Shown in pieces: positions 16,447 through 37,477 of a stretch of 63,082 bases of DNA. Source of the DNA: a virus; the IMG/VR virus record IMGVR_UViG_3300045988_178671, positions 1 through 63,082 of that record; one strand, written 5' to 3'. Each line of letters begins with the position of its first letter. Positions within the stretch are counted from its first letter, which is position 1. The notes beneath the pieces are model-generated. The model was not told the origin of the DNA. It searched no databases and was given only the letters and a program-made list of their open reading frames with translations. Both the position numbers and the translations under genes were made by a program.

Positions 16447-16692
16447 TTACTTCGTCAGATTTTCAATAATGCAGTCGTAGACTTCTTTGTTGTCCACTTC
16501 CGTTTTTTGGCCCACGGTTGTGCCGGAGTTGTTATTGGCAGCGTTCGCGGCGGCTTTTGTTTCCGCCAGCATACGTTGGGCCGCCGCCTTATTTTCGCAC
16601 AAGGCGTACTGTTTGCGGGTGCCGTTTATCATCAGGCTTCCCCAATACAAGGGCGAGCCGGCGCGTTTATATACTGACGGTAATTTTGCCAT
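16447..16692 (-). CDS. Stand-alone integrase Arm-type (AP2-like) N-terminal DNA-binding domain protein, 81 aa
   Basis: MAKLPSVYKRAGSPLYWGSLMINGTRKQYAL...AAAQRMLAE resembles the N-termini of tyrosine integrases, including both integrases in this window. Confidence 0.4.
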   Translation of the reverse strand: MAKLPSVYKRAGSPLYWGSLMINGTRKQYALCENKAAAQRMLAETKAAANAANNNSGTTVGQKTEVDNKEVYDCIIENLTK

Positions 16693-16740: not shown

Positions 16741-17688
16741 CTATTTTTTAGATAAAAGCCTATCTCCGTAGTTTTCCTTGAGTTCTTGATAAGTGGTGTA
16801 TCCTAAATAGTTCAAATCCCACCTATTTAGAATATCTAGTTTCCCATCCAAAGTTAGAATCACAGCAAAATTCTCATCTTCCAGGGAAATGATATCTGGT
16901 AGCATTAAAAAATTATTCCACACTCCTTTAATATCTAGATATGGACAGTATCTATATTTTTTTAGGTCCATTGTTAAATTCTGGAGGATTTTTTTCTTAT
17001 CTATGTAAACGATTCCGTCTTGTAAATAAGCATATTTATACCAAGCATTCTCTCCGATTAGTCTTGTTTTTATTCTGTGACAGCCAAAAGGGTTTAGTGT
17101 CCAACGCGAAACTCCATAACAAAAATCCTCATTTGCTAAACTTCTATCGACAGCACATCTTAAAAGTTTCGATAACTCGGTTTTTTCTATCAAGTCGCCA
17201 TTAATAAAAATTTGAGTTCCTTTTAAATTTTTAACTTCATCATATATTTTTTTAAAATCATGAAGGTTCTCTTTTTTAAAAGTAACCTCAAAGTTTTTTA
17301 TTTCTTCTGCTACATATTCCTTATACGATGGTAATTTTTTTATAATAGTTAAGGTCCTTTTAAATCCTATGCTTCTGCTTTCTGTCATTCTTAGTGTTAA
17401 TATCCATTCTTTGTTTTGCAGAAAAATAACAGGAGCAGATATATTTTCATTAATTGTAGGTGCTCTTTTTTTAGCCAATGAACAATGTTTTTTATTTATA
17501 AAATCTTCTGAATAGTGTGGTGTCCCATAAAAACCGCCTCTTCCAGTTGTTACCGTGAAAATAACCTCTTCTACCTTCTCTTTTTTGTCTCGAGTTGGCG
17601 TGGAGGTTTTTTGTGACTTCGATGTGCTAACTTTGACGCAAAAAATAATAAAAAAAGCCACACTTAAGACAAATATTAATGGCCCCAT
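16741..17688 (-). CDS. Membrane-anchored protein of unknown function (N-terminal TM helix), 315 aa; translationally coupled to the cI-like repressor
   Basis: TAATG overlap with the repressor stop at 17688; very AT-rich; hydrophobic N-terminus MGPLIFVLSVAFFIIFCV. Confidence 0.5.
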   Translation of the reverse strand: MGPLIFVLSVAFFIIFCVKVSTSKSQKTSTPTRDKKEKVEEVIFTVTTGRGGFYGTPHYSEDFINKKHCSLAKKRAPTINENISAPVIFLQNKEWILTLRMTESRSIGFKRTLTIIKKLPSYKEYVAEEIKNFEVTFKKENLHDFKKIYDEVKNLKGTQIFINGDLIEKTELSKLLRCAVDRSLANEDFCYGVSRWTLNPFGCHRIKTRLIGENAWYKYAYLQDGIVYIDKKKILQNLTMDLKKYRYCPYLDIKGVWNNFLMLPDIISLEDENFAVILTLDGKLDILNRWDLNYLGYTTYQELKENYGDRLLSKK

Positions 17689-18323
17689 TATTTTCGTTCC
17701 TTTTTCTTTTTTACTGGGCGGTAAACATTTACCACCTTGCCGATAATCTCTACGTTTTGAGCAGGTTTGATTATCGAGGTGCAGGCAGGATTATCGGGGA
17801 TTAATTTTACTTCTTTTCCTTTTGGAAAAAATCTTTTTATCGTGCTATATTCATCCTCAATGCGCGCAAGTACAACATCTCCAGGAGTTGCCTCGGCATC
17901 TGGGTCCACAATAATATAATTGCCGTGATAAATTGAATTTTGTGGATCTTCAGGATCTACCATACAATTTCCCTCTACGCGAACAGCAAATTGTTTTTTG
18001 TTTGACTTCTTAATGGGTAAATAACTTTCCAATTCTTCCAGAATAAACTTTTCTTCCGTTGCTGAAGATGTACCTAGAACAGGAATAAGCATTACTTCAT
18101 TTTGGTCTTCCAAGGATAAATTCGTAAAAACATTCTCCAATTCCTCGGGAGTAACTTTTAGCACATTGGCAATCTTTTTAATAGCCGCTTCGCTAGGTTT
18201 TTGCCTTCCAGAAATATAATTTGAAATCAAGGCTTTTGATAAACCTGTTTCCTCTACAAGGCGTGCTTGTGCGCCACGTTCTATTCCATTGTTCCATTTT
18301 TTTAACAAATTTTCAAAACTCAT
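17688..18323 (-). CDS. CI/LexA-like repressor: XRE-type HTH plus S24 peptidase domain, 211 aa. A Cys sits at the nucleophile position (GNCM).
   Basis: N-terminal HTH (LSKALISNYISGRQKPSEAAIKKIANVL). The C-terminus aligns to LexA/lambda CI, with VEGNCM matched to VEGNSM and IKRF matched to VKRL. Confidence 0.75.
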   Translation of the reverse strand: MSFENLLKKWNNGIERGAQARLVEETGLSKALISNYISGRQKPSEAAIKKIANVLKVTPEELENVFTNLSLEDQNEVMLIPVLGTSSATEEKFILEELESYLPIKKSNKKQFAVRVEGNCMVDPEDPQNSIYHGNYIIVDPDAEATPGDVVLARIEDEYSTIKRFFPKGKEVKLIPDNPACTSIIKPAQNVEIIGKVVNVYRPVKKKKERK

Positions 18324-18371
18324 TTTGCTTTACTCTCTCGTCGTAAAATAGGGAAACAACATAACTATCCC

Positions 18372-18400
18372 TTGACAAAGTATATAAACGTTTATATACT
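18372..18400 (+). promoter_or_regulatory. Rightward early promoter (-35 TTGACA, 17-nt spacer, -10 TATACT), overlapped by the 22-bp perfect palindrome AGTATATAAACGTTTATATACT (operator candidate)
   Basis: Read directly from the sequence; lies in the divergent region between the cI-like gene and the early operon. Confidence 0.55.
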
Positions 18401-18576
18401 TTAACTAACAAGGCGCAAGCCTACAAAATTTTAAGAGCCGCGCGTGGCTCTTACAGAGGAACGGCAGAAAAATTCAAACCGTCCTTTGCCCGGGGAATAA
18501 CAGAGCTAATACCCGGGACAATTATAAAACACGGCGCAGGTTGGCAACCCGCGAACGAAGCCCACCAAAAGGGCGG

Positions 18577-18688
18577 CTGATTAACAGATAAAAAACAGTT
18601 TTTGAAAGGGGCAAAATCCTTTCAAAGTTAATCAGCAAGGCTAGTATCGGGGCAGCCACCCCATAAAAGATACTAGCCCTTTTATTTT
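18577..18688 (+). promoter_or_regulatory. Structured 5' leader element: nested inverted repeats, then a terminator-like hairpin with a U tract
   Basis: Nested repeats CTGATTAAC...GTTAATCAG and TTTGAAAGG...CCTTTCAAA. Hairpin GCTAGTATC...GATACTAGC followed by CCTTTTATTTT. There is no ATG anywhere in 18401-18745. Confidence 0.45.
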
Positions 18689-18745
18689 ACCAAATTGAAA
18701 TTGATAATCAATAAGCGAATTTAATAATTACGGAGGAATAAACAA

Positions 18746-18967
18746 ATGATAGATGTAGGCGCAATTAAGAAAGGAACGCATTTCTTTCACCCGGGAATTG
18801 GGGAACTGGTGTTTGACAAAGAAGCCACCGCAGAACTTCTTGGTTGCACTCCCGCCAACCTGTTGAAAATTCGCGGGAAAGACGGCTTAAACCCTTTACG
18901 GGCGCGCGTCAACCGCAAAACAGTTTACGCACAGACGGACATTGAAGAATATCTGTCCTGCCGCTGA
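18746..18967 (+). CDS. Small HTH DNA-binding protein (Xis/AlpA-like; possible Cro analogue), 73 aa
   Basis: First gene of the early operon; HTH ELLGCTPANLLKIRGK. Confidence 0.5.
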   Translation: MIDVGAIKKGTHFFHPGIGELVFDKEATAELLGCTPANLLKIRGKDGLNPLRARVNRKTVYAQTDIEEYLSCR

Positions 18968-19317
18968 TTTGGCCCGCAAGGGCTCCCGCCGGCCTCCTGT
19001 GAAGGCTACCCTACAACGGCGGGAAAAATTTACCCCGAATTGAAACACAAACGGGGTATGGAAATGCCGAAGCTTGCTCTCTGATAGGTTGTAGTGTTGC
19101 GATACTGAGGGGGTCGCAACTGGGCAGGCAAAGGCAGGCGGAAATGATTACCCCGCTCGGGTGCGCCCGTTATAGCGCACGATTTGAAAGGTTTAGCAAT
19201 GGATTACGAAACAGGACTGGCCGTGTGCCAAGCAATTTTGGATTTGCTGTACATCGCGCTTATTTGCGCCGCACCGCTCTTTTGGCGCGATTTTAAAGAG
19301 TTCATCCGAGGGTAGTT

Positions 19318-19653
19318 ATGCAAGAAAGAACTTACACCAAAGAAGAAATAGAAGCCGCCCGCACAAGCGCGCGATATACGGCAAACGGAATAATCAGAAT
19401 TTGGGCATCCTCAATGGGGGCCGAAGCCGTACGCTTGGCCGAGCAGGTAAAAGACGTTTACGAAACCGATTTGCGGCGTTTACTGCGTGGCGCACCAACC
19501 TTGCAAGAGCATATACACGCGCACCTAAACCCCGATCACGGCGATTTACCGGTATGCGGCAAAAAGCCGGAGTGCCGGAACGCGGCAAACTGTAAGACTT
19601 GCACCGCGTACGAAGATTTTAAGGACAAAATGCGGGATAACTTCCGCGAATAA
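19318..19653 (+). CDS. Hypothetical protein with a C-terminal Cys cluster, 111 aa
   Basis: ORF with RBS; motif CGKKPECRNAANCKTC. Confidence 0.4.
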   Translation: MQERTYTKEEIEAARTSARYTANGIIRIWASSMGAEAVRLAEQVKDVYETDLRRLLRGAPTLQEHIHAHLNPDHGDLPVCGKKPECRNAANCKTCTAYEDFKDKMRDNFRE

Positions 19654-19674
19654 TCAAAAAAGGAGACCATACCA

Positions 19675-20955
19675 ATGACAAACGGCATCATATCATTGAC
19701 CGTAGAAAACATCAAAAAAATCAAGGCCGTAACCATCCGCCCAAGCGGCAATGTGGTGGAAATTACCGGCCGCAACGGGCAAGGCAAAAGCACCGTGTTG
19801 GACGCGATTTGGTGGGCGTTAAAAGGCAAGGATAATATCCAAACCGCGCCCATCCGCAACGGCGAACAAACGGGCAAAATCACGCTGGAAGTGGAGCAGT
19901 ACATCGTAGAGCGCACGTTCAAACGCAACGAACGCGGCGACGATTACACCACCAACATCAAAGTGATTACCAAAGCCCGCGCCCAAATGCGCAGCCCGCA
20001 GGCGGTACTGGACGGCTTTACGGGTATGTTGGGCTTTGACCCGTTGGCCTTTATGCGCCAAACACCCAAGCAACAGTATGACACCCTGCGCGGGCTCTGC
20101 AAATTAGACGTGTACGTGGAAGAACTGGACAGACAATATAAAGACCTGTTTGCCCAACGTACTGAGGTCAACCGCGACGTTAAAACGTGCGAAGCGCGGC
20201 TTGCCAATATGGTAATCCCCGCCGGCGCGCCGACCGAGCGCGTGGACGTGGCCGCTTTGGTTGACAAAGTGGAAGAAATCAACGCGGATAACTCCGCCAT
20301 CGCGCAACGGCAACGTATGCGCCAAACCTTGCTCGCTGATAACGTCCGCCGCGGCGAAGAAGCCAAAAAATTATACGCTCGGCTTGCCGAAATTGAAAAA
20401 GAAAACAAATCCGCCGCCGAACAAATCGGAACGATTACGGATTATCTGCGCGACAACAAACCGCAGGACGCTTCTTTTTACAGCGAAAAAATCAAACAGG
20501 CCGAACAAATCAACAGCATTATGGATTTGCGCGACAACCGCGCTTTGGAAGAAAAGACGCTCCGCGCCGCACAGAGCAAGGCGGACGGCTTAACCGCCCA
20601 AATGCAAGGACTGCAAGAGCAAAAGCGCGCGGCCATCGAATCGGCCCACCTGCCAGTTTCCGGCTTGGAATTTGGCGACGGGGAACTGCTTTTAAACGGA
20701 GTGCCGCTCGAACAGTTATCGACCGCGGAGCAGTTAAAGCTGTCTATGGATATCGCTATGGCGGAAAACCCCAAACTGCGCGTGATTTTGCTTAAAGACG
20801 CGTCGCTGTTAGACCCGCAAAGCACCGACTATGTACGCCGCCGCGCCGTGCAGGAAGGGTACCAAGTTTGGGAAGAACGCGTATCGGCCGAAGGTTCCGT
20901 CGGATTCGTCATTGAAGACGGAGAACTTAAACAGGAAACCGAGGTGGAAAAATGA
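19675..20955 (+). CDS. SMC/SbcC/RecF-like AAA ATPase with a central coiled coil, 426 aa
   Basis: Walker A GRNGQGKST; Walker B/signature ILLKDASLLD; long coiled-coil middle; AAGGAG RBS. Confidence 0.65.
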   Translation: MTNGIISLTVENIKKIKAVTIRPSGNVVEITGRNGQGKSTVLDAIWWALKGKDNIQTAPIRNGEQTGKITLEVEQYIVERTFKRNERGDDYTTNIKVITKARAQMRSPQAVLDGFTGMLGFDPLAFMRQTPKQQYDTLRGLCKLDVYVEELDRQYKDLFAQRTEVNRDVKTCEARLANMVIPAGAPTERVDVAALVDKVEEINADNSAIAQRQRMRQTLLADNVRRGEEAKKLYARLAEIEKENKSAAEQIGTITDYLRDNKPQDASFYSEKIKQAEQINSIMDLRDNRALEEKTLRAAQSKADGLTAQMQGLQEQKRAAIESAHLPVSGLEFGDGELLLNGVPLEQLSTAEQLKLSMDIAMAENPKLRVILLKDASLLDPQSTDYVRRRAVQEGYQVWEERVSAEGSVGFVIEDGELKQETEVEK

Positions 20956-25795: not shown

Positions 25796-26938
25796 ATGTC
25801 AGACAAAATTCACTTATATGAAATTCGGCAAGGTGTTTTTCGGTGCCAAAAGCAGATTAACAGTATTCGTTTTGTGAAAGATTTTTACGGAACCGAAAAA
25901 CAATGCGAAACACAAGCACGTGCGTGGTGGGAAGATATCAAATCCCGCTATCGCGATAACTGGGATGGAACAAAAACATGGGACTTTTTCAAAACAAAAT
26001 GGGAGGAATGGGCCCGCTTGGAAACAAAATCCAAAGTTCCTATGGCAGAACGTACGATTACAGAATACAAGTGGGCATTTAAACAGGCTGAACGCCTTAT
26101 TTCCCCGATCCGTTATCTTGCCGATATTACACTTCAAAAACTACGTCTTGCCCGTGGAGTATTGGAAGATGAAGCGCGTGCAAAGGATGCGGACAATTAT
26201 GGCCCCAATAAGTTCGTTGGTTGTATGCGTGCCAGCCTGATGTGGGCTATGGAGCGTGGGTATATGAAAGATATTATATTAGATAACTTCCGCGCACTCC
26301 CAGTAGCAGAGGTAAAAGTAAAAACCCAAAGTATCCGAGAAATAGAACTACTCTTAAAATACGGTAGTACCAAAGAACGTGTGGTTGTTCTATTGGGCTT
26401 TGACTGCGGTTGCCGGCCCGAAGAAATCGCCAATATGCTTATTAACAACTTAGATTTGGAAAACGGTTTTGCCGATATTACACCACACGAAGAAGACAGC
26501 AAGCACGGCATTACGCGGTGGCATCCAAAGGTTTGGAAACGCCGTCAAATCCGACTTACGCCACGCCTTATTGCAGAAATTAAAAAACTGGGCAGCGAGG
26601 GCCCCTACTTGATTTCAAACCAATATGGCGAACCATATACGCAACTGGGATTCCCGCAGTTTTATGGCAAATTTGTAAAAAAAGTAAATGCCTGCATTCG
26701 GGATAAAGAAAAAGACCCCATAAAAATTACGGCTAGTTGCAAAACCTTGCGCAAAAATTACAGCACAAGCCGGCAAGGGCAAGGAGCCACCATTGAAGAA
26801 ACGGGTAAGAGTATGGGCCACGCGGACAGCAAAGTTACGCGCAAAAACTATACGGACACATTAACCCCCGAAATGCGCGCACAGGAGCGGGAACGACTTA
26901 AAAAAATGGATCAGTTTATCGTACCGTTGGAGTATTAA
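25796..26938 (+). CDS. int: Tyrosine recombinase / integrase A, 380 aa
   Basis: C-terminal MGHADSKVTRKNYTD (the HxxR...Y region); Arm-type N-terminal domain. Confidence 0.8.
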   Translation: MSDKIHLYEIRQGVFRCQKQINSIRFVKDFYGTEKQCETQARAWWEDIKSRYRDNWDGTKTWDFFKTKWEEWARLETKSKVPMAERTITEYKWAFKQAERLISPIRYLADITLQKLRLARGVLEDEARAKDADNYGPNKFVGCMRASLMWAMERGYMKDIILDNFRALPVAEVKVKTQSIREIELLLKYGSTKERVVVLLGFDCGCRPEEIANMLINNLDLENGFADITPHEEDSKHGITRWHPKVWKRRQIRLTPRLIAEIKKLGSEGPYLISNQYGEPYTQLGFPQFYGKFVKKVNACIRDKEKDPIKITASCKTLRKNYSTSRQGQGATIEETGKSMGHADSKVTRKNYTDTLTPEMRAQERERLKKMDQFIVPLEY

Positions 26939-27112: not shown

Positions 27113-27184
27113 AGTGGGGGCAAAAGTGGGGGCAGAATACCTAAAAATCAAGTGGGGGACACTCGGACAAAAGTGGGGGACACT
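27113..27184 (+). repeat. Four direct AGTGGGGG repeats: two as AGTGGGGGCA and two as AGTGGGGGACACT. Putative integrase arm-type binding sites (attP arm or prophage junction).
   Basis: Repeats at 27113, 27125, 27151 and 27172, abutting the 3' end of integrase B. Confidence 0.5.
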
Positions 27185-28358
27185 ATTTTTGCACCATTTG
27201 GGGCAGTTTGAGAACAAACGATTTCATCCGCTCTAAATGCTCCAAACGGGCCTTTGCATCCGCCTTGCGCAGGGTTTCTTTGTCAATATAATGGCGCTCG
27301 GTGGTCTTTTTGTCCGCATGCGAAACGTATTTTGATACGTCTATTTCCGCCGCGCCGGCCTGTATCATATACGACGTATGCGTTTTACGCAAAGACTTAT
27401 ACGTGCACACTATCTTATGGCCGTTTTCTTCTTTACGCAAAATCATTTCGTTGACGTTTTTTAAGTTTTTGTTCCAATGCTTGGAAAAAGTGCTGTCATC
27501 CAGCGGGTGGCCGTTTTCGTTGGTAAGTAGATATGTTTTGGCATGCAAGGATAAAATGTCCGCCACGGTGTCCGGCGTGAAATAAACCGGGCGTTCTTTG
27601 TCTCTTTTGACCGTCCACGCGCGGATGCCGCGGTTTTTGTTTTCCGCGTTATGGCTAATCCACGCAATGCCTGTGGCGGGGTCCAACTTTTCTATTAAAA
27701 AGTTGTACATTTCTTCCGGGCGCAAGTTCCCCTCAAAGCCCATACGAACGGCCACGCGCATTTGAGGACTGCTGTACTTTAAGAGCATAGCAAGTTCCCA
27801 CGTGGTAAGTACGCGCACCACAGGCGCGCTGGTCTTTTTGGGCGAATTGCGTAGTGGGGTAAGGTCTATATACGGGATATACCCCTCCACCATTCCCCAG
27901 TCAAAGGCGCGCAAAAGGCAACCCATATCTTTATTGACCCCGTAATTATCGTCCCCGTTGCGTTGGGCTTCGGCCGCCTTGGTACGGCGGAACAAGGCTA
28001 TATCTTCAAAGGTTAAATCCCGCACATAGTGTGGCTTGGCAATTTTTTCAAAGTGGGCCAAAGCGTAGGAGTATTCGGCAATGGTGCGGGTGCGCCAAGT
28101 GGGCTTGCCTGTTTTGGCGTCCTTTTCGGTACGCAGGGCTTTAAGAAAGGCACTCGTAAAAAAGGCCCACGTTTTAGAGCCGTCCACTCGGCGGGACTTG
28201 TTTTCCCGTTCCAATTTTTCTACCCAAATTTTATAGTCGTGTTCCCGTTGCTCCCGGTTGCCAGTCAAAAAAATCTCGTACCGCCTGCCATTTATTTGCT
28301 TGCGGTATCTTTGGCCTAGACGGCCGGGGCGTTTGAAACTGGAAATTTTCTCAGCCAT
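27183..28358 (-). CDS. int: Tyrosine recombinase / integrase B, 391 aa; paralogous to integrase A
   Basis: C-terminal VSHADKKTTERHYIDKE; the RKQINGRRYEIF Arm-type N-terminus parallels integrase A. Confidence 0.8.
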   Translation of the reverse strand: MAEKISSFKRPGRLGQRYRKQINGRRYEIFLTGNREQREHDYKIWVEKLERENKSRRVDGSKTWAFFTSAFLKALRTEKDAKTGKPTWRTRTIAEYSYALAHFEKIAKPHYVRDLTFEDIALFRRTKAAEAQRNGDDNYGVNKDMGCLLRAFDWGMVEGYIPYIDLTPLRNSPKKTSAPVVRVLTTWELAMLLKYSSPQMRVAVRMGFEGNLRPEEMYNFLIEKLDPATGIAWISHNAENKNRGIRAWTVKRDKERPVYFTPDTVADILSLHAKTYLLTNENGHPLDDSTFSKHWNKNLKNVNEMILRKEENGHKIVCTYKSLRKTHTSYMIQAGAAEIDVSKYVSHADKKTTERHYIDKETLRKADAKARLEHLERMKSFVLKLPQMVQK

Positions 28359-29597: not shown

Positions 29598-29969
29598 TTA
29601 TTTTCCCTTTTTGAGCAAATTATATTTTAATTCCAAATTTTCTATTTTGCTTTCTAATGCTTCAATTTTTACCCGCATCAAAGCTATATCTTTTTCCACG
29701 TTGGGCGAGACGGTGATATTTTTGCCAACGATATTTTGGTTTCCCTTGACGTCGGTAGAATTATCAAAAAAATAATTAATGGGCCGCTTTGTAAGTGTGG
29801 CTATTTTTTCTAAATTCTCCATAGTGATAGTGGAACCGCCATTAAGCATTTTATTAATAGCACTATGGGTCTTTCCCATTTTTTTCGCGAGCGAAACTTG
29901 ATTAAAACCGCTTTCAATCATAGCAATTTTGATTTTTTTAATGATATTGTCAGTTTCTTTTTTCGTCAT
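29598..29969 (-). CDS. Small CI-type repressor: XRE HTH plus C-terminal coiled coil, 123 aa
   Basis: HTH SLAKKMGKTHSAINKMLNGG; C-terminal heptad repeats; divergent from the phage B early operon. Confidence 0.55.
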   Translation of the reverse strand: MTKKETDNIIKKIKIAMIESGFNQVSLAKKMGKTHSAINKMLNGGSTITMENLEKIATLTKRPINYFFDNSTDVKGNQNIVGKNITVSPNVEKDIALMRVKIEALESKIENLELKYNLLKKGK

Positions 29970-29996: not shown

Positions 29997-30043
29997 TTGA
30001 CAAATGTTCCTGTTATTCCTAAAATATGAGTGTTAGGAACATT
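29997..30043 (+). promoter_or_regulatory. Phage B early promoter (-35 TTGACA, 17-nt spacer, -10 TAAAAT), with the operator-like inverted repeat AATGTTCCT...AGGAACATT flanking the -10
   Basis: Read from the sequence: -35 at 29997-30002, -10 at 30020-30025, inverted repeats at 30003-30011 and 30035-30043. Confidence 0.55.
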
Positions 30044-30121
30044 ATAAGAACTAACGCCCCGGTAAAACGGGTTTTGGTTGGCAGAAAAAAACGCTTAAAC
30101 AATTTGGGCAACATGTGTGAG

Positions 30122-30193
30122 TAAGGGTGGTGTAAGCGACCACCCTTGCCAACCAAACCGTACAACTTTACCAGAGGCTGTACGGTTTTATTT
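30122..30193 (+). promoter_or_regulatory. Leader hairpin followed by an intrinsic terminator, lying between the early promoter and the first gene
   Basis: AAGGGTGGT...ACCACCCTT stem-loop at 30122-30146. Then the AACCGTACA...TGTACGGTT stem followed by TTATTTT at 30155-30193. Confidence 0.5.
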
Positions 30194-30245
30194 TACCATA
30201 AAAACCGCACCAATATGGAATTGCGGCTACGATTTGCAGAAAATT

Positions 30246-30500
30246 ATGAAAAAAGGCGAACTGGCAATAAAAAAATTGGATGTACGGATATTTCCAAATG
30301 CAGAAGTGATTACCGATTTGGCCGGAAATACGTTTTTAACACGGACGGCGGTGGCACGGTTGTTTGGCTGTTCCTTGCCGACGTTGGCCACCACCTACAA
30401 GCGTAAGGGCTTACGGCCGTTGGACCGATATGTAAACGGCCGCGTAGTGTATTTACTGGAAGATGTGGAACTGATGTATAACCGCCGGGCAACTTATTAA
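30246..30500 (+). CDS. KilA-N / ORF6N-like DNA-binding protein (antirepressor or Cro-like candidate), about 84 aa
   Basis: Start moved to MKKGELAIKK because the annotated upstream extension would translate through two hairpins; weak pattern match TFLTRTAVARLFGCS. Confidence 0.35.
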   Translation: MKKGELAIKKLDVRIFPNAEVITDLAGNTFLTRTAVARLFGCSLPTLATTYKRKGLRPLDRYVNGRVVYLLEDVELMYNRRATY

Positions 30501-37356: not shown

Positions 37357-37394
37357 AAACCCGCTTTCCGACGGTGGAAAGCGGGTTTTGTTTT
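37357..37394 (+). terminator. Strong rho-independent terminator downstream of TA module 2
   Basis: CCCGCTTTCC-gacggt-GGAAAGCGGG stem followed by TTTTGTTTT. Confidence 0.7.
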
Positions 37395-37402
37395 GCCCGG
37401 GT

Positions 37403-37477
37403 TTGACTATTTTAAGAAAATTACTTATACTATCCCTATCTGGTACACGCATGTTGCGTGAGTTTTAAAATTTTTTT
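37403..37477 (+). promoter_or_regulatory. Phage B late promoter (-35 TTGACT, 17-nt spacer, -10 TATACT), followed by a short hairpin (CACGCA-tgt-TGCGTG) and a U-rich tract, upstream of terS
   Basis: Read from the sequence: -35 at 37403-37408, -10 at 37426-37431, hairpin at 37446-37460 followed by AGTTTTAAAATTTTTTT. Confidence 0.45.

Follow-up and report, generated by a model that had tools for sequence, protein, structure and literature searches.

The window analysed here is a viral stretch of 63,082 nucleotides (nt), the whole of IMG/VR record IMGVR_UViG_3300045988_178671, and the element in question is a structured RNA leader encoded on its plus strand, in the intergenic span 18324-18745 between a repressor gene and the first early gene of a prophage designated phage A. 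The features of this locus, of which the hairpins H1 to H4 were located by folding, are as follows:

17688-18323, minus strand: S24 repressor gene, 211 amino acids (aa), HTH_3 plus Peptidase_S24, CI/LexA-type, divergent from the leader
18372-18400, plus strand: early (lytic) promoter, TTGACA (18372-18377), 17-nt spacer, TATACT (18395-18400)
18379-18400, no strand: 22-base-pair (bp) perfect palindrome AGTATATAAACGTTTATATACT, overlapping the spacer and the -10; candidate operator
18412-18421, plus strand: H1, GGC-GCAA-GCC with a GNRA tetraloop, the 5'-proximal hairpin
18432-18453, 18454-18488 and 18489-18517, plus strand: H2, H3 and H4, the optional 5' hairpin module
18526-18690, plus strand: conserved core, type W, made up of P1' 18532-18557 (loop UUGGCAA), P2' 18560-18574, P3' 18576-18636 (inner hairpin 18601-18626) and the P4' terminator
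18542-18545, plus strand: P1' loop motif UGGC, a candidate for a kissing contact with GCCA (18655-18658), part of the terminator loop
18639-18689, plus strand: P4' predicted intrinsic terminator, hairpin 18639-18679, apical loop CAGCCA 18653-18658, U tract TTTTATTTTA 18680-18689
18746-18967, plus strand: first early gene, encoding a 73-aa Xis/MerR-type winged helix-turn-helix (HTH) protein

The repressor matches Peptidase_S24 (E=4e-21) and HTH_3 (E=4e-8) in Pfam and PHROG 4 (transcriptional repressor, E=9e-34). The promoter facing away from it, with TTGACA and TATACT 17 nt apart, lies exactly where the original prediction, made from the letters of this stretch, had placed it; it agrees with the consensus at 11 of 12 positions and is the top promoter-like site in a promoter scan of 17500-20000, and equivalent TTGACA-17/18-TAnnnT promoters are found at the same location in relatives. 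The perfect palindrome described over this promoter is likewise present and occurs only once in the window, even when up to three mismatches are allowed (0 expected by chance); a half-operator match inside a coding region, at 16665-16674, was put down to chance. That the palindrome serves as operator is plausible, given that in relatives with other repressors its place is taken by other repeats, and the early promoter is the sole promoter with an operator-like palindrome ahead of the early operon. The genes behind the leader are those of a typical early operon, the 73-aa gene being followed by genes for an SbcC-like ATPase, a PD-(D/E)XK exonuclease and RecT.

Downstream of the promoter, the 345 nt from 18401 to 18745 contain no ATG, in agreement with the some 340 nt originally described as ATG-free; about 5.4 would be expected, and just 0.3% of shuffled sequences are free of ATG. 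ATG avoidance is not a strict family trait, as homologous leaders contain 0-4 ATGs. No plus-strand open reading frame of at least 20 aa with any start codon was found in 18401-18745, and insertions and deletions between relatives' leaders preserve helices, so that a small protein gene in the leader was considered and rejected. When folded, the whole leader forms eight hairpins with a predicted stability of -107 kcal/mol (z = -7.3 relative to dinucleotide shuffles). These include the GC hairpin TAAGAGCC-GCGCGT-GGCTCTTA at 18432-18453, nested inverted repeats that span 18576-18636 with an inner hairpin at 18601-18626, and, before the first gene, a terminator-like hairpin (18639-18679) followed by the U tract TTTTATTTTA, all three of which had been recognised beforehand.

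The leader had been taken as one element of ~340 nt. It is indeed a structured leader, but it is not one unit, because identity to one relative (L001) begins abruptly at ~18518: from there on L001 is 96% identical to the window, and upstream it has another repressor, promoter and operator. By this comparison the leader is a mosaic of modular build, with an optional module (18401-18517) and a conserved core (18526-18690). The H2-H4 module is absent from L001, whose core is identical; H1 is also found behind three other promoters (L045, L050 and L022). In L050 the 5' module sits behind a different repressor and promoter and carries compensatory changes in H2 (AAGAGCC/GGCUCUU to AAGGGUC/GGCCCUU) and in H4 (CCCGGG/CCCGGG to UCCGGG/CCCGGA), and parts of it recur in L045 and L022. 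We also note that the 3' arm of H2 (GCUCUUA, 18447-18453) and UUCUUUAACAA in the 5' module of L022 (L022:2190-2210) resemble the boxA elements of lambda nut sites and of rrn operons, a likeness that could be chance.

Relatives were gathered with the 73-aa HTH protein as probe, which gave ~58 true loci, all of them from Elusimicrobia/Elusimicrobiaceae metagenome-assembled genomes or gut metagenomes; L002-L004 (ParB-like) and L064 matched the pattern by chance and were left out. In nearly all loci a gap of ~300-350 nt separates the upstream module from the HTH gene. Among GenBank phages blastn found no similar DNA, and with the repressor protein as probe no relatives were found in IMG/VR. Across the family the core is 165-195 nt long and has four helical elements, including the terminator. 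In type L, for which 17 relatives were aligned, P1 consists of an outer stem (AUACG/CGUAU) plus an inner hairpin, P2 is CCCC-AGGGCA-GGGG, P3 is a helix of 9 bp that surrounds a capped hairpin and the conserved internal loop ACAAAUUG, and P4 is an outer stem that encloses two small hairpins and is followed by a U tract. The family is defined by P1, P2, a long P3 with a conserved A-rich/UUUG internal loop and a P4 terminator with the tail UUUUAUUUUAY, all on the sense strand and placed between the early promoter and the Xis-type HTH gene; in every subtype P3 forms a perfect 8-12-bp helix, made from unrelated sequences, and the P1/P2 architecture differs greatly between subtypes. A covariance model built from the type-L relatives only matches the type-W core of the window (33.1 bits, E=1e-8) and 55 of the 58 loci, and all 55 elements lie on the same strand as, and immediately upstream of, the HTH gene.

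The covariation whose absence was to refute the structure is present, and it is strong. In plain MAFFT alignments, 11 of 36 pairs are compensatory in type L and 15 of 39 in type W (window, L011, L058/62 and L063). Because MAFFT misplaced P1 (A3) and P3 (A7), 25 distinct sequences were in addition fitted to the model, which gives an alignment that leans towards structure; in it 98.5% of the cells are paired and 28 of 36 pairs have changed on both sides, a result matched by 0 of 500 shuffles, and controls with slid partners drop pairing to 35-46%. The same alignment contains 34 G·U cells and 13 non-standard cells. The variable hairpins are capped on the plus strand by GNRA (GCAA, GAAA, GCGA, GUAA) and UUCG tetraloops, none of which would be a stable tetraloop if read on the opposite strand, and these loops together with the G·U cells show that the plus-strand RNA is the selected molecule. 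Fold and covariation thus support the structured plus-strand leader that was proposed downstream of the repressor-divergent promoter. Apart from tRNAs elsewhere, the window and nine relatives contained 0 Rfam matches at gathering score, and at E values up to 10 the window, phage B (see below) and the nine relatives gave matches at chance level only; ARAGORN found no tRNA or tmRNA-like gene, and no description of the RNA family was found in the literature searched. Judged by these comparisons, the element belongs to an RNA family not described before, for which Rfam has no matching model.

The window contains two tandem prophages whose integrase genes adjoin (25796-26938, plus strand; 27183-28358, minus strand), and the second of these, phage B, has a copy of the element that the original prediction had overlooked:

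29598-29969, minus strand: HTH_3 repressor gene of phage B, 123 aa
29997-30025, plus strand: early promoter of phage B, TTGACA, 17 nt, TAAAAT, divergent from the HTH_3 repressor gene
30021-30196, plus strand: RNA copy, with P2 30058-30071 (loop GUAAAA), P3 30074-30156, terminator 30157-30186 (loop AACUUUACCAGAGGCU) and tail UUUUAUUUUAC
30246-30500, plus strand: HTH_17-like gene, whose protein aligns with the 73-aa family

This copy was detected by cmsearch (20.1 bits, E=1e-4), and its order of repressor, promoter, RNA, terminator with tail UUUUAUUUUACC and HTH gene is the same as in phage A; context and tail are identical in both window copies (18526-18690 and 30021-30196), and both fall within the family as defined. 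Among the relatives, the core stays constant behind at least ten different promoter/operator/repressor modules, and the distance from the -10 to P1 ranges from ~10 to ~150 nt. Two tandem immunity modules, each with its own RNA element, are found in L030 (L030:1600-2500). The first has an S24 repressor, a promoter and a type-W element, followed by a convergent gene for a 114-aa HTH repressor whose stop codon abuts the first terminator; the second has a second promoter and a different element subtype. One of these copies is thus cut off from the HTH gene by the inserted convergent repressor gene, and is still intact. Breaks in module exchange seem to fall at the conserved TTTTATTTTA tail. In a further group (L034, L037-L044, L055, L063 and L051) the element is found behind a same-strand tyrosine integrase gene, not beside a divergent repressor gene. 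In L055 a leftward promoter (TTGACA, 18 nt, AATAAT) faces the integrase gene.

By its anatomy, a stable hairpin directly before a U tract, P4' is predicted to be an intrinsic terminator. Terminator hairpins in the family range from -20 to -24 kcal/mol and are followed by 5-9 U, and the tail TTTTATTTTAY (UUUUAUUUU) is conserved in all subtypes; a simple consensus terminator scan missed P4' because of its loop limit of 8 nt. With the 3' arm withheld, only 0-2 nt of the terminator 5' arm pair elsewhere in nine of the ten core representatives that have a discrete terminator hairpin, the exception being phage B (winB), in which 8 of 13 nt do so. A classical antiterminator helix was looked for in the core representatives and was not found, and because the 5' arm stays unpaired there appears to be no classical antiterminator alternative. 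The comparison with an attenuator, made at the outset, therefore holds in part: control in cis by antitermination or attenuation remains the most economical reading, but an attenuator or riboswitch built on a classical, mutually exclusive antiterminator helix is not supported.

Each terminator loop is complementary to an upstream loop, and the pair changes from subtype to subtype in a compensatory way: type L and L028 have GGGCA:UGCCC, type W has UGGC:GCCA, phage B has GUAAA:UUUAC and L030b has UCGCG:CGCGA. In a test with shuffled loops the combined p is ~0.02. We retain this contact between the terminator loop and an upstream loop as a candidate because it was noticed post hoc. A precedent for such an arrangement, and its closest analogy, is found in corrinoid riboswitches, in which a loop of the upstream domain pairs with the loop of the expression-platform hairpin (PMC10653944); the likeness lies in the contact between an upstream loop and a regulatory hairpin loop, which here is predicted only, and no Rfam cobalamin model matches. 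The precedent, together with a conserved multi-helix fold that has conserved junction and internal-loop nucleotides and a terminator directly after it, would suit a new class of metabolite-sensing riboswitch, in which P1-P3 would form the aptamer and P4 the expression platform, and by which lytic development would be coupled to host physiology. We regard such a class, which would overlap the cis-acting control set out below, as quite unlikely: none of the known aptamer classes matches, a mutually exclusive antiterminator helix is lacking, the great variation of P1/P2 among subtypes would be unusual for a ligand pocket, and the downstream genes hint at no ligand.

For an RNA whose structure, conservation, strand, position and terminator-like anatomy are shown, the interpretation that we favour on balance is that the leader acts in cis as a structured RNA, governing read-through of the terminator that it carries and thereby gating the lytic operon; termination, regulated read-through and the direction of that regulation are what we infer here. 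Transcription would start at ~18407. The optional four-hairpin 5' module (18412-18517) would be made first, with H1 probably capping and stabilising the 5' end, followed by the core with P1', P2' and the long P3' with its A-rich/UUUG internal loop; P4', a strong terminator whose apical loop could pair with the upstream hairpin loop, would be made last. By default, polymerase would halt at 18680-18689 and an RNA of ~280 nt would be released, and the HTH gene and the recombination and replication genes would be expressed only when polymerase passes P4'. Because no phage protein is encoded before the terminator and there is no antiterminator helix, the P1-P3 domain itself is likely to set the level of read-through. 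It would do so either by acting on polymerase, in the manner of put, EAR and canT, or by capturing or positioning the terminator through the loop-loop contact, and a host factor or metabolite might tune the outcome. As to the mode of control, RNA-mediated antitermination is a possibility that we hold tentatively, attenuation tuned by a factor or ligand seems rather unlikely, and a terminator that is merely leaky and constitutive would be very surprising. A more specific proposal, which we consider doubtful but worth stating, is a gate made of RNA only, in which an upstream hairpin recognises its own terminator loop by a short, co-evolving kissing interaction and thereby decides read-through; this would constitute, at the lysis-lysogeny switch, either a sequence-specific, non-processive form of RNA-mediated antitermination or a new riboswitch-like class that responds to a ligand or factor. 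In the relatives with the element beside an integrase gene, nothing but regulated read-through of this terminator might separate lysogenic from lytic transcription.

Several observations weigh against control of read-through as we propose it. Termination and read-through have been read from the sequence alone, the best covariation figures come from the model-fitted alignment with its bias towards structure, and the loop-loop test is modestly significant (p ~0.02) and was devised after the sequences had been inspected. No other strong plus-strand terminator was found in the early operon until 25748 by the consensus scan, and this weakens a processive, put-like model. The integrase-adjacent loci have no recognisable sigma-70 promoter between the integrase gene and the element, and promoter-deleted variants (L053/L054 and L058) persist in metagenomes; these are probably crippled prophages, and in L053/L054 a deletion between two GACGTAAAA repeats has also removed the 5' half of the element. 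Finally, a weak plus-strand promoter-like site lies between the terminator and the HTH gene, at 18701-18728.

The last of these sites would suit the reading that the element is a discrete small RNA gene, its stable, compact product of ~170-290 nt being made from the repressor-controlled promoter, ending at P4' and acting in trans as a protein decoy, as an antisense regulator or, on nascent transcripts and through loop complementarity, as a leader-derived immunity RNA of the P4 CI/P1 C4 type, with the early genes transcribed by leak-through or from a second promoter. Such a gene would also account for a strong terminator that has no antiterminator alternative, is integral to the conserved fold and co-varies with it, for the conserved A-rich/UUUG internal loop and the long U tail, and for the intact copy in L030 that the inserted repressor gene has parted from its HTH gene. 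Nevertheless, all 55 elements are co-oriented with the HTH gene and immediately upstream of it; the -10 of the 18701-18728 site is poorly conserved in relatives and the site has no operator, so that the lytic genes would be unregulated. No conserved complementary target was found, nor any Rfam match to C4 or another small RNA family. Taken together, we consider a trans-acting small RNA improbable, and prefer control of read-through in cis.

The DNA from the U tract of P4' to the HTH gene contains two further features:

18690-18745, plus strand: post-terminator block, with the palindrome ATTGATAATCAAT, a AGCGAATTT repeat and the ribosome-binding site GGAGG at 18732-18736
18684-18711, minus strand: candidate convergent promoter, TTGATT, 16 nt, TGGTAAAAT (extended -10), pointing leftward into the terminator

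The most conserved DNA of the region is 18690-18722, and direct repeats in the block, such as TAGCGAATTT, may be binding sites of the HTH protein. The convergent promoter-like site (18711-18684), which had escaped notice in the original prediction, was detected by a promoter scan of the window. In relatives its -35 (TTGAYT) and TGGTAAAAT are kept and the 16-nt spacer is variable, which is the signature expected of a leftward promoter into the terminator. Transcription from this site could produce a short antisense RNA to P4 and exert control by pairing or by transcriptional interference. This would be compatible with regulated read-through in cis, with the sense structure at least partly its target, and a 60-90-nt antisense RNA from the site might counteract an RNA-only gate. 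Type L has an invariant A5-7 tract 5' of P4, because of which its P4 is predicted to be a bidirectional terminator and the antisense product of this type would be ~60 nt long, and in the window there are minus-strand terminator-like hairpins at 18626-18601 and 18553-18535. On the other hand, the convergent -10 is the complement of the terminator U tract and for that reason possibly a by-product, neither the L034/L037 group nor phage B has the -35, and P4' of the window has no A tract on its 5' side; moreover, the tetraloops and G·U pairs place selection on the plus-strand fold. Control by an antisense RNA is therefore, in our estimation, unlikely. A role of the leftward site as a PRE/PRM-like promoter for the repressor was also considered and rejected, since type-L P4 is bidirectional, yet the same repressor type occurs with type-L and with type-W elements.

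Among the known RNAs to which regulated read-through in cis brings the leader close is put of phage HK022, which is ~70 nt long, has two stem-loops and needs no phage protein (PMC9378689). In both cases a cis-acting nascent RNA would be found just downstream of a temperate-phage early promoter and before a terminator, and would depend on no phage protein; the resemblance to put that was originally suggested may hold for function, cis-acting antitermination or attenuation being the most economical reading. It does not extend to membership of the put family: the present element measures 165-195 nt (~280 nt if the 5' module is included), has four helical elements that include its own terminator and matches no Rfam model. 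Furthermore, put, which is known from lambdoid phages of enterobacteria, suppresses several distant terminators processively, through the beta' zinc-binding domain, whereas no further terminators were seen before 25748 here, and the element has a candidate contact to its own terminator loop. The core shows no similarity to put as described in PMC9378689, and it is by this description that the two are set apart.

Large cis-acting leader RNAs that let polymerase pass terminators are also known from Tn916 (canT), B. subtilis (EAR) and pLS20 (conAn2), and in Tn916 the terminator insulates the genes of the element from premature expression (PMC11658703). Whereas canT (340-452 nt) and the Tn916 terminator T1 are joined only after excision, RNA and terminator are contiguous here and co-vary. 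We detected no homology to canT, EAR or conAn2, and the Rfam EAR model does not match. In phage P4 (CI RNA) and in P1, P7 and N15 (C4/CA RNA), leader RNAs carry loops complementary to sites in the same leader and control premature termination or translation of downstream genes; these RNAs are ~70-90 nt long, undergo RNase P processing and either take the place of a protein repressor or supplement it. The present element resembles them as a leader-encoded RNA with loops complementary to other sites in the leader, but it is accompanied by a CI-type protein repressor and has no evident processing signal; the C4 family (RF01695) gave no Rfam match, and ARAGORN found no tRNA-like RNase P substrate.

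A promoter followed by a short terminated transcript, with downstream genes that need antitermination, is likewise the arrangement of lambda PR'-6S RNA-tR' with Q and of AlpR/AlpA in P. aeruginosa, the latter consisting of an S24 repressor and a small HTH_17/AlpA-type antiterminator protein (PMC7969949). The 73-aa protein has weak similarity to HTH_17 (Pfam, E=0.005) and to excisionases (PHROG, E=0.002); in an AlphaFold2 (AF2) model (predicted local distance difference test score, pLDDT, 87) its best PDB folds are RdfS excisionase, BldC and Xis, and the fold does not discriminate between Xis, BldC and AlpA. However, Q and AlpA come from a separate transcription unit and are loaded at promoter-proximal DNA sites, whereas the HTH gene here lies behind the terminator. 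Promoters vary among relatives while the HTH protein is conserved, and the distance between promoter and element ranges over ~10-150 nt; AlpA/Q-like loading of the HTH protein at the promoter is thus unlikely.

Temperate-phage switches are usually explained by repressor/operator logic plus protein antiterminators, and very few systems are known in which RNA alone controls early transcription, namely put, the P4/P1-type RNAs and, recently, canT. The family described here, supported by covariation and without an Rfam model, stands at the head of the lytic operon in prophages of the Elusimicrobiota, a little-studied phylum of the gut, and the leader probably decides whether the lytic genes get transcribed. 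It is a new RNA family with, possibly, a new coupling of an upstream domain to its own terminator, and as such might bring a new mechanism or sensor into the lysis-lysogeny decision. With its promoter, ~170-nt RNA and terminator it is also a compact system in which to ask how a nascent RNA controls its own terminator, and the covariance model is ready for annotating Elusimicrobiota prophages.

A second conserved, structured non-coding block is found directly after the 73-aa HTH gene, at 18968-19060, and is conserved in eight relatives. It has three parts:

18972-18983: GCCC-GCAA-GGGC
18985-19023: CCCGCCG...CGGCGGG, with a variable inner hairpin and a conserved ACCCUACA
19033-19056: CCCCG-AAUUGAAACACAAA-CGGGG, a stem with compensatory changes

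The loop motif of this block resembles the ACACAAAUUG internal loop of the leader element, and because of this likeness the same factor might bind to both. We also note that tRNA genes are located within the early regions of two related prophages (L011:3957-4030 and L063:3503-3576), and that at 37357-37431, in phage B, a strong plus-strand terminator (AAACCCGCTTTCC...GGAAAGCGGGTTT) is followed directly by a near-consensus promoter (TTGACT, 17 nt, TATACT), which may mark the start of a late operon.

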